From positions 6,447-70,446 of the forward strand of contig JBAZUO010000002.1 in the NCBI GenBank assembly GCA_041661345.1: a DNA stretch of 64,000 nt, read 5' to 3'. Positions 10,609-50,254 of the stretch are shown here, one piece after another. The translations under genes and the position numbers were made by a program. Within the stretch, counting starts at the first letter, position 1. Each line of letters opens with the position of its first letter. The notes beneath the pieces are model-generated. The model was not told where the DNA came from, made no database searches, and saw nothing but the letters and a program-made list of their open reading frames with translations. The DNA comes from Candidatus Omnitrophota bacterium. Lineage in GTDB: Bacteria > Omnitrophota > Gorgyraeia > 2-01-FULL-45-10.

Positions 10609-11892
10609 ATGAAATCATACAAGATCAAACCGATAAAAAAACTGTCAGGCGATATAATCCTACCCGGAGATAAATCCATATCTCACAGGGCCGTTATGAT
10701 CGGGGCCATATCACAGGGTGAGACGAGTGTAAGAAATCTTCTTGACTGCGATGATTGCAATTATACCATTCGCGCCTTTAGGAATATGGGCATCCAAATT
10801 AAAAACCATAAGGATAGAACTATAATATCGGGCAGAGGCTTGAGAGGCCTGGTTAAACCGAAGAGTTCGATCAATGTCGGCAACTCCGGGACGACGATCA
10901 GGCTTTTGGCCGGAATTTTATCGGGACAAAATTTTGAAACGGTTCTCGAGGGCGATACGTCTCTATCCAATCGCCCAATGACAAGGGTAGCGGCGCCTCT
11001 GCAGGCGATGGGCGCCGACATAAAAGTTGCCACGGGAGGTTATCCGCCGCTTAAGATTAAGGGCGGCGAACTGCATGCGATCGATTACAGGATGCCGGTA
11101 CCGAGCGCCCAGGTGAAGAGCGCGATTTTGTTCGCGGGATTGTACGCGAAAGGGACGACGACGGTCGAAGAGGTATTCAAAAGCCGCGATCACACGGAGC
11201 GTATGCTTAAGTTGTTTGGTTCCAACATAAAGGTAGATGGTCTTAAGGTCTCGGTTACAGGCGGCGGGGAGCTGACAGGTAAGTCGCTCGAGATCCCCGG
11301 TGATATATCAAGCGCAGGCTTCTTCATGGTGCTCGCAACTCTCCTCGAATCTTCCGCAATTAAAATAAGCAACGTATGCATCAATCCAACGCGGGCCGGT
11401 ATTCTGAATATTATGGTGAGGATGGGTGCCAAAGTAAAGATCATTAACAAACGCGACGTCTTTGAACCGATAGGGGATATAGAGGTTAATTCGAGCGGCA
11501 CCAAGGGTATGGTGATCGAGGAAAATGACATCCCGGGCATTATAGACGAGCTTCCTATAATATTCGTCCTCGCGGCGCTTTCAAAAGGCAAGACCGTGAT
11601 ACGCGGCGCCGAAGAATTAAGGGTTAAGGAGACGGATCGTATTACATCGATGAAGATGAATCTCGAAAAGATGGGCGCCAGAATCGAAGTCAGAAAGAAC
11701 GAGATCGTCATAGACGGGGTTAGCGCTCTCAAGGCCTCGAAGACTTTGAGAAGCTACGGCGATCACAGGACGTGCATGGCGATGACGATAGCCGCGCTTA
11801 CCGCGGAAGGCGAAAGCGAGATCGACGATATTGAGTGTGTCAATAAATCATTCCCGGAATTCTTCAAATATCTGGAGAGGCTGGGAAGATAA
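10609..11892 (+). CDS. aroA: 3-phosphoshikimate 1-carboxyvinyltransferase
   Basis: LPGDKSISHRAVMIGA, NSGTTIRLLAGIL, LRVKETDRI. Confidence 0.95.
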   Translation: MKSYKIKPIKKLSGDIILPGDKSISHRAVMIGAISQGETSVRNLLDCDDCNYTIRAFRNMGIQIKNHKDRTIISGRGLRGLVKPKSSINVGNSGTTIRLLAGILSGQNFETVLEGDTSLSNRPMTRVAAPLQAMGADIKVATGGYPPLKIKGGELHAIDYRMPVPSAQVKSAILFAGLYAKGTTTVEEVFKSRDHTERMLKLFGSNIKVDGLKVSVTGGGELTGKSLEIPGDISSAGFFMVLATLLESSAIKISNVCINPTRAGILNIMVRMGAKVKIINKRDVFEPIGDIEVNSSGTKGMVIEENDIPGIIDELPIIFVLAALSKGKTVIRGAEELRVKETDRITSMKMNLEKMGARIEVRKNEIVIDGVSALKASKTLRSYGDHRTCMAMTIAALTAEGESEIDDIECVNKSFPEFFKYLERLGR

Positions 11893-11912
11893 ATTTTTCG
11901 ATAAATTTATGT

Positions 11913-39836: not shown

Positions 39837-39852
39837 GCTTAATCTAATTGTT

Positions 39853-39914
39853 GTCCCTCGCAGCCGATAGTGAAATGGTCGGTAGTTCGGGACGATTTTT
39901 ACTTCGTAAAAATC
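39853..39914 (+). promoter_or_regulatory. structured 5' leader of rplU (two hairpins abutting the SD)
   Basis: Hairpin 1 pairs GTCCC (39853-57) with GGGAC (39889-93), with an inner GCCGA/TCGGT stem. Hairpin 2 pairs GATTTTTAC (39894-39902) with GTAAAAATC (39906-39914), a perfect 9 bp. GGGGG SD follows at 39915-39919. Confidence 0.5.
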
Positions 39915-39926
39915 GGGGGTAATTAA

Positions 39927-46802: not shown

Positions 46803-48695
46803 ATGTTTGAATCTATAAAGATCTACCTTAAAGAAGAGATCGATTTAGAAGAGATATCCCTTAAACTGGTGGAGTACGGCTACCGTGCCTCCAAAAAAGT
46901 TTCCGAGGAAGGTGATTTCTCACGCCTCGGAGACACACTTACAATATATCCCGCGACATTTGAATATCCCCTGAGAATCGGTTTTTTGCATGATAAAGTC
47001 GAACGCATAACGAGCGTAGACCCAATCACCTATGAGAATGTTGAAAACCACGATGTCGCTATAATACTCCCGATAAAAGGTATTGCCAGAAAGAGGATCC
47101 GCCGCAAAGAGCTGGACACTGCCGAACAATCTCCGATCGATAACTTCGTTGACATAGAAGCCGGCGACTACATTGTCCACATAGAACATGGTATAGGTAA
47201 ATATCTCGGCGTAGAGAAGGTTAAGATAGACAAGAAGTATGTTGAGCATCTGGCGATAGAGTACGCATCCGGCAGCAGGCTCTATGTGCCGTTTACCGAT
47301 CTGGATAAGATACACAAATATTTCGGATTTGAGAAGAGACTTCCGAAGCTCCATAAGCTGGGTGCCAAATTGTGGAAAGCCCAGAAGGAGAGGGCGAAGG
47401 AAGGTGTATATAAAATAGCGGCTGAGCTTCTCGAACTGCAGGCAAAACGTTCATCGGCCCCCGGATTCAGATTCTCAACCGATACCGAGTGGCAGGCGAA
47501 GCTCGAGAAAGAATTCCCTTACAAAGACACGCCCGATCAGATGCGCTCGGCGATAGAGGTGAAGAAAGACATGGAGTCTTCCAAACCGATGGACAGGCTT
47601 CTCTGCGGAGATGTCGGTTATGGAAAGACGGAGGTTGCGATAAGGGCCGCCTTTAAGGCGGTGATGGACAATAAGCAGGTAGCGATCCTTGTACCTACCA
47701 CTATCCTCGCCGAACAGCATTTTAATACATTTACTAACCGCATGAAGAACCTGCCTGTGGTTGTAGAGATGCTATCGAGGTTCAGATCTAAGGATGAGCA
47801 GAATAGAATAGTGAAGGGTGTAGCCAGCGGCACCGTTGATATAATCATAGGCACACATCGTCTTCTTTCACAGGATATAAGATTTAAAGACCTGGGGCTT
47901 GTGATCATAGATGAAGAGCAGCGCTTCGGAGTAAAACACAAGGAGCATCTAAAAAAGATGCGGTTATCTGTCGATGTCCTGACGCTGACTGCCACACCCA
48001 TTCCGCGTACACTATACCTTGCGCTGATGGGCGGCAGGGACATATCGGTTATCAATACGCCGCCGTCCGAGAGGCTGCCTGTAGAGACGAAAGTTACACA
48101 CTATGACGACGCGCTTGTGCGGGATGCGATCATGAAAGAGAAACGTCGCGGAGGCCAAGTATTTTTTGTCCACAACAGAATAAAGGGGATAGAGAAACTC
48201 GCCAGGGACCTTGCCGCCCTTGTGCCCGGAATAAGCATTGCCGTCGGCCACGGGAGGATGAACGAGAGACAGCTCGAGGACTCCATGATCAAATTTATAG
48301 ACGGCAAGATCGACTGCCTTGTTTCGACGACGATCATAGAGAGCGGCATAGATATTCCAAACGCGAATACGATAATCATAAACAGGGCTGATACGTTTGG
48401 GCTATCGGAGCTTTATCAATTGCGCGGCAGGGTGGGCAGGTTCACGAGGGCGGCGTATGCGTACCTGCTTATTCCGAAGCATTTTGTCTTAAGCTCCGAA
48501 TCCCAGAAGAGATTGACTGCAATAAAGAAGTTTCAGGAACTCGGCAGCGGGTTCAAGCTTGCAATGGAAGATCTTCAGATCAGGGGCGCGGGCAACCTTC
48601 TCGGCGTCGAACAGCACGGCTATATCAACGCGGTCGGCTTCGACCTATACTGCCGCCTCCTCAAATCCGCGATCGATTCCTATAAGAAAAAATAA
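46803..48695 (+). CDS. mfd: minimal Mfd-like transcription-repair coupling factor (630 aa)
   Basis: UvrB/Mfd domain-2-like GDFSRLGDTLTIYP...PLRIGFLHDKVERITSVDP, CarD/RID GDYIVHIEHGIGKY, and SF2 motifs GDVGYGKTE, DEEQRFG, QLRGRVGR. TRG-like LQIRGAGNLLGVEQHG. It ends ~25 aa later. Confidence 0.8.
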   Translation: MFESIKIYLKEEIDLEEISLKLVEYGYRASKKVSEEGDFSRLGDTLTIYPATFEYPLRIGFLHDKVERITSVDPITYENVENHDVAIILPIKGIARKRIRRKELDTAEQSPIDNFVDIEAGDYIVHIEHGIGKYLGVEKVKIDKKYVEHLAIEYASGSRLYVPFTDLDKIHKYFGFEKRLPKLHKLGAKLWKAQKERAKEGVYKIAAELLELQAKRSSAPGFRFSTDTEWQAKLEKEFPYKDTPDQMRSAIEVKKDMESSKPMDRLLCGDVGYGKTEVAIRAAFKAVMDNKQVAILVPTTILAEQHFNTFTNRMKNLPVVVEMLSRFRSKDEQNRIVKGVASGTVDIIIGTHRLLSQDIRFKDLGLVIIDEEQRFGVKHKEHLKKMRLSVDVLTLTATPIPRTLYLALMGGRDISVINTPPSERLPVETKVTHYDDALVRDAIMKEKRRGGQVFFVHNRIKGIEKLARDLAALVPGISIAVGHGRMNERQLEDSMIKFIDGKIDCLVSTTIIESGIDIPNANTIIINRADTFGLSELYQLRGRVGRFTRAAYAYLLIPKHFVLSSESQKRLTAIKKFQELGSGFKLAMEDLQIRGAGNLLGVEQHGYINAVGFDLYCRLLKSAIDSYKKK

Positions 48696-48776
48696 AATTT
48701 CATGGCTCCTAAAAATGTGCTGTGTCGAGTGGCTCACAGGGACGCTCGGCCGCTCCAGCGGCGGCCTCGCTCCAGG

Positions 48777-48830
48777 TAAATTTTTGTGCCGCCGCTATTT
48801 AACAATAGCGGACCAATCCACAAAAATTTA
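48777..48830 (+). repeat. two-tier perfect hairpin H1
   Basis: Outer 12 bp TAAATTTTTGTG (48777-88) / CACAAAAATTTA (48819-30). Inner 8 bp CCGCTATT (48792-99) / AATAGCGG (48804-11). Loop TAAC. Confidence 0.9.
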
Positions 48831-49010
48831 CAGGCCCTGTTCACCACATTGCCACATCACATTCTGTAATCCGTAAAATTTTCCGACTCTCCTCAGGATT
48901 TTTTTTGCTTCTTAGTATCGGCGGAACTTTTGTATGCCTTATTATTCTTATACAGCCGCCCGGGGCAGTGGGGTTGAGCCGTGAAATTTTACGGGTGACC
49001 CTACTGAACG

Positions 49011-49086
49011 TAGAGACGCTTTCCGTGACCATCGGGAAACTGCCCCATTTATGACACTTTCCCGATTACCTCCGAAAGCGTCTCTA
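49011..49086 (+). repeat. two-tier perfect hairpin H3
   Basis: Outer 13 bp TAGAGACGCTTTC (49011-23) / GAAAGCGTCTCTA (49074-86). Inner 9 bp ATCGGGAAA (49031-39) / TTTCCCGAT (49058-66). 7x7 internal loop and 18-nt apical loop. Confidence 0.9.
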
Positions 49087-49126
49087 TCCCCCGATGTTCT
49101 CCCTAAGAAATTTTTCGATTCCTAAA

Positions 49127-49233
49127 GAGTCCCCCAAAGCGTTCGCGCCCAACCATATCTTCAAGATGTGATGTGGTGAACCACTCGACACATCACATCT
49201 TACGAATGGCTTGGGCGTGGAAGATGGGGGCTC
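49127..49233 (+). repeat. 107-nt extended imperfect hairpin H4
   Basis: Apical 13 bp perfect stem 49163-75 / 49189-201 around the loop GTGAACCACTCGA. Lower helices are 49151-56/49206-12, 49142-50/49213-21 (two G-U pairs on the + strand) and 49127-35/49226-33. Confidence 0.8.
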
Positions 49234-49261
49234 GAAGACAAAAAATTTCCCCATAATCCGT

Positions 49262-49291
49262 TTGACGTTATATTAGTATATATGTTACAAT
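49262..49291 (+). promoter_or_regulatory. sigma70-type promoter (extended -10) of the DHS-like/LPS gene block
   Basis: TTGACG (49262-49267), 18-nt spacer ending in TGt, TACAAT (49286-49291). Confidence 0.55.
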
Positions 49292-49315: not shown

Positions 49316-50254
49316 ATGAATAGATGCAGGGCTGACCTGACCAAGATCAGGACGATACCGCTTAATGCGCGTAAGTGCAAAGTGGCCATAAAAGACTTTG
49401 CCAAGCTTACAAAAAAGGGCTCCAGTTTCAAGAGTTTCTACGAATCACTTCCCGATATACTCGCAAGCCAGAATTTTCGTGTTCTTGTCGATAGAATAGC
49501 CGAATCCTACAGAAAAGATAAGATGGTTATATTGATGATGGGTGCACATGTCATAAAATGCGGCCTATCGCCGCTTATCATAGATCTCATGAAACGCGGG
49601 GTGGTTAAGGCGGTCGCGTTAAACGGCGCGGGCGTTATTCACGATACAGAGATAGCGATGATCGGCAGGACGAGCGAAGACGTCGGTGAAGGAATACTCG
49701 ACGGGTCGTTCGGTATGGCGAAGGAGACGGCGAGCTTCATAAACGGCGCGATAAACGCCGGATTCGGCGATGGTATAGGGATAGGCGAGGCGGTCGGTTC
49801 GGCCATTGTAAATAATAAGCTGCTCCATAAAAATTTAAGCATACTTGCCAACGGATACGAATTGAACGTCCCCGTAACGGCGCACGTCGCGATAGGCACG
49901 GATATAATTCACCAGCACCCGTCGGCAAACGGTGAGGCGATCGGAGAAGGTTCGCTTCTGGATTTCAGGAATTTCATATACAGTATTTCGCGGCTCGCGG
50001 GAGGCGTGGCAATCAATCTAGGCTCCGCAGTGATCCTTCCCGAAGTATTTTTGAAGGCGGTTACTGTCGCCAGAAACCTCGGTAATAAGTTGGACGTATT
50101 TACTACCGCGAATTTTGACATGATAAGCCAGTACAGGCCGTATCAGAATATACTATCGCGGCCGACATCCAAGGGTGGCAAAGGCTACAATATCACCGGG
50201 CATCATGAGATAATGATACCGCTTCTTTACCGTTCCATTATCGAGAAGATCTAA
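49316..50254 (+). CDS. uncharacterised protein with a deoxyhypusine-synthase-like (DHS-like) pattern
   Basis: VILMMGAHVIKCGLSPLIIDLMKRGVVKAVALNGAGVIHDTE parallels the DHS segment GYTSNLISSGIRE...VDVLVTTAGGVEEDL as I recall it. NVPVTAHVAIGTDIIH and GVAINLGSAVILPE also parallel it. The assignment is by eye only. Confidence 0.35.
   Translation: MNRCRADLTKIRTIPLNARKCKVAIKDFAKLTKKGSSFKSFYESLPDILASQNFRVLVDRIAESYRKDKMVILMMGAHVIKCGLSPLIIDLMKRGVVKAVALNGAGVIHDTEIAMIGRTSEDVGEGILDGSFGMAKETASFINGAINAGFGDGIGIGEAVGSAIVNNKLLHKNLSILANGYELNVPVTAHVAIGTDIIHQHPSANGEAIGEGSLLDFRNFIYSISRLAGGVAINLGSAVILPEVFLKAVTVARNLGNKLDVFTTANFDMISQYRPYQNILSRPTSKGGKGYNITGHHEIMIPLLYRSIIEKI

Follow-up and report, generated by a model that had tools for sequence, protein, structure and literature searches.

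We found that the 620-bp gap that separates a truncated mfd gene from an unannotated open reading frame (ORF) of 312 amino acids, the DHS-like gene, on the Candidatus Omnitrophota contig JBAZUO010000002.1 probably holds a mosaic array of non-autonomous, hairpin-forming interspersed repeats. These are of the kind represented by repetitive extragenic palindromic (REP) sequences, their REPIN and BIME combinations, and miniature inverted-repeat transposable elements (MITEs); they are best taken as a new family of that kind and are multi-copy in Candidatus Omnitrophota. The stretch analysed, 64,000 nt long, is called the window here, and positions given without a locus name are its own. A first-pass annotation had singled out three segments of the gap that can pair with one another, and had read them either as the terminal inverted repeats and an internal copy of a MITE-like element of about 480 bp or as alternative helices of an RNA switch. 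They are shown here to be the two arms of a single stem, P1, in one complete copy of a repeat of about 190 bp, which we term module A, and, in inverted orientation, a collapsed second copy that lies at the tip of an adjacent module.

The comparison with close relatives establishes the extent of the inserted DNA. The nearest relatives found via the protein database, L166 and L167, encode a DHS-like protein 95% identical to that of the window and have the same argS-mfd-DHS order, with collinear flanks on both sides; their mfd-DHS gap is 72 bp, against 620 bp in the window. Their empty site reads ...AAGAAGTAAAATTTC|CCCACAATCCATTTGACG... (in a shorter form ...GTAAAATTTC|CCCACAATCC...), and the filled site reads ...AAAAAATAAAATTTC followed by the inserted ATGGCTCC...GAAGACAAAAAATTTC and then by CCCATAATCCGTTTGACG... 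(in a shorter form ...ATAAAATTTC[548 bp]CCCATAATCC...). When both junctions were aligned with the empty site, the inserted block was seen to occupy 48702-49249, or 548 bp counted with the right copy (49242-49249) of the 8-bp direct repeat AAAATTTC. The left copy, which is the A4T3C target, lies at 48694-48701. This repeat stands on both sides of the block in the window and once in the empty site, so that the flanks and the empty site, both of which the first-pass annotation had proposed to inspect, each bear out an insertion. The insertion point, TAAAATTTC|CCCA (TAAAATTT|C), is an A4T3 site whose A-run overlaps the mfd TAA stop codon (48693-48695, + strand), and L166 and L167 have the same TAAAATTTC context there. 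The whole 548-bp block is an insertion at the mfd stop codon.

Other relatives show further states of the locus. L001, the closest relative in the genome collection (DHS-like protein 86% identical), keeps mfd upstream and the TTGACG...TACAAT promoter-like sequence, with a gap of 188 bp and without the element; L001 and L002 are too diverged to define the junction, for which the 95%-identical relatives were needed. In L169 (86% identical), the same position is taken by another module, about 300 bp long and with the ends AAATTTTACGGGTGA...CCGTAAAAATTT. L168 (87% identical) carries an array of module A and a further repeat, module C, ahead of the DHS-like gene, although the gene preceding the array is another one. 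In L165, an independent assembly of the window strain, the contig ends inside the array, at window position 48962. This is as expected for repeats, and these repeats fragment the metagenome assemblies of the group.

The pairing that first drew attention to the gap was confirmed. The segments 48715-48737 (ATGTGCTGTGTCGAGTGGCTCAC) and 49176-49198 form an inverted repeat with 21 of 23 positions matching, which extends to 26 nt at 88% when the flanks are included (48712-48737/49176-49201). No other match to the 23-mer exists in the window at up to three mismatches, and 100 shuffles gave 0 matches. A third segment, 48840-48862, pairs as had been described with the region 49166-49181 of the hairpin H4 in two registers, one with 49166-49176 and the other with 49171-49181. 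Both span 11 bp, the latter having previously been given as 10 bp (49171-49180). H4 itself (49163-49175/49189-49201) is a perfect 13-bp hairpin, and the gap as a whole is much more stably folded than its shuffled versions (z = -10.6 for the + strand and -11.9 for the - strand). The three-segment observation is real and not a product of chance.

What these segments belong to becomes apparent from the minimum free energy (MFE) fold and from profile searches. The array begins with a complete module A of the subtype A2 (48694-48882, + strand), which consists of the stems P0 (48694-48705/48871-48882), P1 and P2 and of two hairpins on a three-way junction, and which nhmmer matched over its full length with a 47-copy profile (48690-48885, + strand, E = 4.9e-34). 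The supposed left terminus is the P1 5' arm (48714-48737, +; family core AATGTGCTGTGTCGAGTGGTTCGC) and the supposed internal copy is the P1 3' arm (48839-48863, +; family core CTCACCACRTCGCCACATCACATT); the two pair with each other in both the MFE and the consensus structure, with a pair probability of 0.97. The inner hairpins at the junction (48744-48831, +; individually 48748-48766 and 48776-48831) both recur with compensatory variants in 17 other A2 copies. The array middle (48883-49106) folds into the MFE hairpins 48920-48960 and 48961-49093, the latter with sub-hairpins at 48966-49006 and 49010-49087. It holds fragments resembling other module types (CGGCGGAACTTTTGT, GGGGTTGAGCCGTGAAATTTTAC and AAATTTTACGGGTGAC) and has only short similarities to L137, L154 and L160, and the profiles of module C and of another repeat, module B, gave no significant match in the window. 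The array ends with module D (49107-49249, - strand), a long hairpin of 143 nt closed by GAAATTTTT/AAAAATTTC (GAAAUUUUU/AAAAAUUUC), with MFE helices at 49107-49115/49241-49249, 49131-36/49225-30, 49142-52/49211-21 and 49163-75/49189-201.

The apex of module D is H4 (49163-49201, - strand), the supposed right terminus, and it is a collapsed inverted copy of module A. The nhmmer match here (49207-49176, -, E = 0.002) covers only profile positions 25-56, which are the P1 5' arm, and the tip reads on the - strand as ATGTGATGTGTCGAGTGGTTCAC joined directly to CACATCACAT, that is, as the P1 5' arm fused to the end of the 3' arm at their shared GTTCAC. One repeat present in two copies of opposite orientation automatically takes on the look of inverted termini. 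The motif AAATTT occurs seven times in 48695-49243, as against 43 times in the remaining 63 kb of the window, and five of the seven mark joints between the four segments of the array in the MFE fold.

Module A recurs widely outside the window. The first clue came from L012 and L013, where segments like the left 23-mer and like the internal copy are found elsewhere, after a gene that reads in translation as a glycosyltransferase-9-like one, and pair mutually with compensatory differences (ATGTG/CACAT versus ATGCG/CGCAT, and CAGGG/CCCTG versus CAAGG/CCTTG). A metagenome scan with the 20-nt core TGYGCTGTGYCGAGTGGYTC returned 77 stretches. Among 81 pattern matches examined, the 3' arm lies downstream in 55, and about 60 appeared genuine by eye, the rest being chance matches in GC-rich coding DNA. 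About 55 module A copies were found in metagenome and Omnitrophota contigs, and the copy search that had been proposed at the outset thus shows the core to be multi-copy in related genomes. Five exact-core copies lie on the 830-kb contig Ga0082335_1000010 and another five on the 328-kb contig Ga0209514_10000038, three further contigs carry pairs, and L159 has two copies in 7.4 kb. The named relatives of the QueA protein of the 830-kb contig are from Omnitrophota only, and those of the DHS-like protein are almost all from Candidatus Omnitrophota metagenome-assembled genomes (MAGs). Carriage on viral contigs was considered and set aside, as a scan with a 17-nt core gave seven matches, all by chance in coding DNA.

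The anatomy of the module is apparent from an alignment of 47 distinct copies. It is an imperfect palindrome of about 190 bp whose ends, AAAATTTTTCG and CGAAAAATTTT, pair with each other as the stem P0 and enclose P1, P2 and the three-way junction. A copy starts with TAAAATTTTTCG, at or at most 2 nt from a stop codon, and continues with a short variable stretch, the P0 strand that pairs with its 3' counterpart. Next come AATGTGCTGTGTCGAGTGGTTCGC as the P1 5' arm, AGGGACGC, which opens P2 and the junction, and the two hairpins; the 3' side runs from CCCT through the P1 3' arm CTCACCACRTCGCCACATCACATT to ...CGAAAAATTTTAC. There are two subtypes, A1 and A2, in which P1 and the junction nucleotides are common while the hairpins differ. 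P1 is nearly invariant, with fixed pyrimidine-pyrimidine mismatches and a purine bulge on reading the alignment, and P2 is variable. Internally deleted derivatives also occur, such as those of L088, with 61 nt from P1 to P1, and L156, with 90 nt. In L013 (1690-1712/1798-1825), L140 and L171 (745-770/855-880), both P1 arms carry matching extra segments (AAACCTCGGGGTTGTGC... / ...GCACGAACCCCTCGGTTT) that lengthen the stem symmetrically, as if a smaller palindrome had been inserted into it.

The pattern of pairing bears on whether the repeats are maintained as DNA or as RNA. The consensus fold of 18 A2 copies, that of the window included, has 50 pairs, and 18 of the 50 have changed on both sides and yet remain paired. 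When individual helix cells are counted, A1 copies have 1103 Watson-Crick, 6 G-U and 6 A-C cells and A2 copies 827, 3 and 6, so that the rare single mismatches comprise 12 A-C against 9 G-U overall. Selection on each copy as an RNA should tolerate G-U and purge A-C. As the two are about equally frequent, resident copies seem to decay neutrally, with pairing being enforced at copying, and the target of selection would seem to be the capacity for being copied rather than each resident copy. The same combination of conserved arms, a hairpin-forming spacer and common compensatory changes has been described for REPINs (PMC3116915), and the pairing pattern of module A agrees with that description. 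We propose that the modules would spread as DNA via a folded single-stranded intermediate recognised by a putative enzyme, and that the retention of modules A and B, though not C, in the sense orientation would reflect orientation-dependent selection through the transcript. At the window locus, mfd would thereby have gained a highly structured 3' tail starting at its own stop codon, and the promoter of the DHS-like gene would have been pushed 548 bp downstream.

The ends of the modules point to a common target. In 38 copies with clear ends, a left AnTm is mirrored in the inverted sense by a right AmTn in 27, and a direct match is seen in four, all of them symmetric. The run lengths are correlated in the inverted sense (r = 0.65 and 0.58) and not in the direct sense (r = 0.08 and -0.09), with the inner runs constant (T5...A5) and the outer ones varying jointly (A3...T3, A4...T4, A5...T5). 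This covariation of the left A-run and the right T-run indicates insertion at the centre of AnTn palindromes. Across the family the data allow a symmetric duplication of 0 to about 8 bp, in any even number of base pairs; a fixed target duplication of 8 bp as a rule of the family was rejected, as copies of the form A3T5...A5T3 cannot arise in this way. Outside the array, 37 of the 43 AAATTT sites of the window lie inside genes, and one overlaps a stop codon. With most such sites being intragenic, viable targets would be scarce and the TAA+AATTT at gene ends would be a natural one. At window positions 11889-11908, directly at the stop codon of the gene 10609-11892 and with no module behind it, we observed TAAATTTTTCGATAAATTT, which includes the 10-nt module end AAATTTTTCG without any mismatch (chance would give about 0.1 occurrences in 64 kb) and may be the footprint or remnant of an element.

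At other loci, module A is preceded or followed by repeated modules with the same AAATTTTTCG...CGAAAAATTT ends, resulting in mosaic arrays, four of which lie within 11.7 kb of L093. Module B is about 225 nt long, with 15 profile matches, and module C about 230 nt, with 23. Module B runs from AAATTTTTCGGGTGACGCG to GCGGCAGGACCCGAAAAATTT (L093:3346-3572, L139:5225-5448, L121:5249-5464 and L105:8925-9146, among others), has a complex interior rather than a simple hairpin, and in most cases stops 3-40 nt short of where the next gene starts; it may be a mobile 5'-untranslated-region or promoter element or a structured RNA itself. In L171, the spacer between spoIID and queA contains a gene of the AbiGi (abortive-infection) family (958-1704) between modules A and B, and such arrays may also serve as landing sites for accessory genes.

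Several observations weigh against interpreting the array simply as mobile repeats of the REP and MITE kind. As both the target and the element ends are A/T runs, the junction is ambiguous, with duplications from 0 to 8 bp fitting, and DDE, HUH and site-specific mechanisms are all compatible with it. No HUH-like ORF was found within 1.5 kb of the module A copies examined: of 81 ORFs of 90-260 amino acids within this distance, five have an HxH-type motif and none is Y1-transposase-like by eye. No coding or autonomous element with module ends was found in 1.1 Mb of loci, where the stretches checked between ends hold host genes. Two candidates for such an element were rejected, namely the ORF following a lone 5' arm in L119, which is a truncated copy beside a host gene, and the 2.2 kb between element ends in L115, the translations of which read as amtB and glnB. 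The position of the copies is also unlike that expected of a symmetric DNA insertion, which would not give a strong sense bias together with abutment on stop codons. Of 53 distinct module A copies, 26 begin no more than 2 nt from the stop codon that closes a long sense ORF, with the TAA overlapping the A-run in 22 of these; TGA and TAG also occur, and four further copies lie within 8 nt. The mirror case, an antisense ORF ending at the 3' end of the element, is seen once in 53, plus one at 8 nt. Where the flanking genes agree in direction, module A is co-oriented with them in 30 cases and anti-oriented in six, and module B in eight and none (12 and one with one-flank cases). Finally, module A is found in the spoIID-queA spacer of three genomes (L135, L170 and L171) in which the QueA proteins share only about 80% identity, and its presence there fits long retention or function as well as it does repeated insertion.

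These points lend some credence, though short of even chances, to the alternative that, however it arose, module A, and possibly module B as well, serves chiefly as a functional cis-acting RNA at mRNA 3' ends; this would not exclude mobility. A long hairpin starting 0-2 nt behind the stop codon could shield the upstream mRNA from 3' exonucleases, provide a site for processing between cistrons, or stall a ribosome as it terminates, as a REP within about 15 nt of the stop codon reportedly does in Escherichia coli. Besides the abutment on stop codons in the sense orientation (26 of 53 against one), this is favoured by the co-orientation of the upstream gene in 41 of 48 copies, by the constancy of the P1 core and junction nucleotides in A1 and A2 despite their differing hairpins, and by the retention of module A after spoIID in three diverged genomes. 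Module C, in the same arrays, is unbiased (five co-oriented against four anti-oriented, or eight against seven with one-flank cases). Thus, the arrays as such are not strand-specific and the insertion machinery need not be so either. Replication direction is unlikely to be the sole cause of the bias, in view of the unbiased module C, of L159, where both orientations occur 3.7 kb apart within an all-minus gene run, and of the 830-kb contig. There, the copies at about 183, 233, 270, 287 and 410 kb are oriented -,+,+,-,- (within 230 kb, with two flips within about 100 kb), and at three of the four sites with clear flanking genes the copy matches the local gene direction, L160 being reversed. The bias of A and B is probably due to selection via the transcript or to properties of those modules. 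On the other side stand the lack of a wobble signature (9 G-U against 12 A-C among about 1970 helix cells), the difference in presence and absence between close relatives at housekeeping loci, the existence of reversed copies (L160, the + copy of L159 and the collapsed copy of the window), and a copy number that is uneven between genomes, with one array in the 64-kb window against the four in 11.7 kb of L093. A more speculative proposal, which we consider unlikely as it stands, would combine both aspects: modules A, B and C would form a new hairpin-dependent class of mobile elements that a putative enzyme inserts exactly at AnTn centres, an independent REP-like system with its own targeting rule, and the sense copies at stop codons would have been co-opted as RNA structures for translation termination or mRNA 3' ends.

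The mosaic of interspersed repeats accounts for the window better than three further explanations. Folded single-strand recombination sites, of the integron attC type or of another site-specific system sharing a core, would likewise be imperfect palindromes with fixed mismatches and a variable tip, starting at a stop codon in co-orientation with the upstream gene and leaving the same short core on both sides of the inserted DNA. Reading the ends and alignments revealed no RYYYAAC or GTTRRRY boxes, the neighbours are housekeeping genes (mfd, argS, queA, argH, pgk) rather than cassettes, the copies are spread over hundreds of kb instead of forming cassette arrays, and no integrase was seen; this makes such sites very unlikely. 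The first-pass proposal of a single MITE of about 484 bp (48715-49198), with the 23-nt inverted repeats as transposase-binding ends, was correct in that the inverted repeat is significant and in that the region is inserted repeat-family DNA of MITE-like character. Its unit and boundaries do not hold, and in this form we regard it as extremely unlikely. The insertion ends at 48702 and 49249, 13 nt and 51 nt outside the 23-mers, and the right 23-mer is the loop-proximal tip of the separate 143-nt hairpin. The recurring unit is the hairpin of about 190 bp at 48694-48882, in about 55 other copies of which a 3' arm at a distance of 60-170 nt is the partner of the 5' arm. No other locus examined has the 484-bp unit, and no second inverted 5' arm was seen beside a full copy at these loci, although this was incidental to other reading and not a systematic search.

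Least credible of all is the other half of that proposal, in which an mfd/DHS-like intergenic transcript would switch its conformation as the left arm, the internal copy and H4 formed one or another of several long-range helices that exclude each other. The three segments can indeed pair in several registers, but any repeat with copies in both orientations will offer such alternatives as a matter of course. The folding energy of -234.5 kcal/mol worsens to values from -213.1 to -209.9 kcal/mol when the left arm is made to pair with the right arm, or the internal copy with H4, and the long-range pairings cost 19-25 kcal/mol; the terminus-terminus helix has a mean pair probability of about 4e-14, as against 0.97 and 0.99 for the local helices. 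Moreover, L166, L167, L169 and L001 lack the elements of the window upstream of the same gene.

The mfd gene (46803-48695, + strand) encodes 630 amino acids with UvrB-interaction, CarD/TRCF-RID and helicase domains according to the ORF list and Pfam. It begins at the UvrB-interaction domain, seemingly without the usual N-terminal part and the C-terminal autoinhibitory domain; the mfd of L166 likewise encodes 630 amino acids, and the short form in the window is thus not an assembly artefact. The DHS-like ORF (49316-50254 in the ORF list) had no match in Pfam. Its promoter-like site in the promoter scan (TTGACG-18-TACAAT, 49262-49291, + strand) is host sequence that is kept in L001, L166, L167 and L169, relatives with and without an insertion. 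Searches for tRNA and tmRNA genes found none in the gap, and Rfam 15 gave no match at the gathering score in the window or in 14 array-rich loci, with only chance matches of miRNA type (E > 1) in the region when scanned at E up to 10. Two other places attracted attention. In the window, a hairpin-rich stretch at 39850-39925 (GTTGTCCCTCGCAGCCGATAGTGAAATGGTCGGTAGTTCGGGACGATTTTTACTTCGTAAAAATCG), which follows a promoter-like TTGACT...TACAAT and precedes an ORF whose product reads as ribosomal protein L21, is a candidate leader of a ribosomal-protein gene; it had no Rfam match. In six Omnitrophota MAGs, the GT9-like gene and ychF are separated by a region that holds some 70 conserved nucleotides (approximately L012:2110-2250, L013:2215-2340, L002:2110-2240, L005:3170-3300, L008:2125-2250 and L014:1865-1990; minus strand). 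These read GGAGGTGATAGGCCTCAATGGCTTTCGCTATCATTTCCCTCTC on the + strand, adjoin a bidirectional terminator-like hairpin (AAAAAAGACCnnnnnnnGGGTCTTTTT), and have the appearance of a minus-strand gene for a small RNA. There was no Rfam match to them in L012 or L013.

More generally, these results replace the earlier reading as a switch or a MITE with a concrete annotation, a 548-bp mobile mosaic in the mfd 3' tail with exact boundaries and an empty-site control. At the level of the phylum, they document a repeat system of the uncultivated Omnitrophota that fills intergenic space in otherwise compact genomes and breaks metagenome assemblies. The system has three testable regularities, namely insertion centred on AnTn, abutment on stop codons, and a sense bias for modules A and B but not C. 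Should this bias be functional, the modules would be natural devices for the control of mRNA ends in organisms that cannot yet be grown; if it reflects mechanism, it would point to a new transposition enzyme. Searches of the accessible literature on Omnitrophota repeats, MITEs and non-coding RNAs found no description of these repeats, and their closest counterparts are the REPIN/BIME, BOX and MITE elements.

Elements mobilised by HUH enzymes, such as Helitron/IS91 and IS200/IS605, use a precise short target, do not need a target duplication, and have subterminal hairpins and a strand bias, with Helitrons inserting between A and T. The data presented here fit insertion at the ApT centre of AnTn. 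The modules nonetheless differ from these elements in being near-symmetric palindromes in place of two different ends, in the absence of strand bias in module C, and in that no HUH protein was found here. With DDE-type MITEs they share a short, non-coding and multi-copy nature, inverted ends, internal deletions, a short flanking repeat, and dispersed copies with empty-site polymorphism between relatives. The inverted repeats that lie directly at the element ends are AAAATTTTTCG and CGAAAAATTTT, exact in 27 of 38 copies, and not the 23-mers. DDE MITEs need no pairing constraint on their interior stems, whereas the interior stems here are under such constraint and a target duplication of fixed length is unsupported; we know of no parent insertion sequence for the modules. 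Another set of comparable elements comprises BOX of Streptococcus pneumoniae (boxA-boxB-boxC), ERIC and Correia, which are modular intergenic repeats of 100-300 bp with stable stem-loops that are co-transcribed and non-coding. The Omnitrophota modules are likewise modular or mosaic and intergenic, but come from another phylum, have no sequence similarity to these families and no fixed module order. Module A further differs from them in its strong sense orientation and stop-codon rule, a rule that, to our knowledge, has not been described for BOX, ERIC or Correia.

REPINs and REP-BIMEs of Pseudomonas and enterobacteria, which are mobilised by the RAYT/TnpA-REP Y1 transposases, are likewise extragenic and multi-copy, and some REPs lie directly after stop codons and affect the upstream mRNA. 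A REPIN comprises two highly conserved inverted arms and a variable spacer that together form a long hairpin, with common compensatory changes and an occurrence in clusters or mosaics (PMC3116915). Invariant P1 arms, covarying P2 and hairpins, and mosaic arrays are the corresponding features here. A REP unit proper would be about 20-40 nt long with a GTAG-like 5' tetranucleotide, whereas module A has an arm of about 24 nt embedded in a 190-bp hairpin, preceded by variable nucleotides (CAGTAG, CACTAG, CAGCCG and others). No RAYT was seen near the copies examined, although this was a limited test. In place of two REPs of 20-40 nt, the Omnitrophota repeat has about 190 bp with a three-way junction, several unrelated interiors share the same ends, and these ends, A4T5CG and CGA5T4, lie at the centre of AnTn sites.

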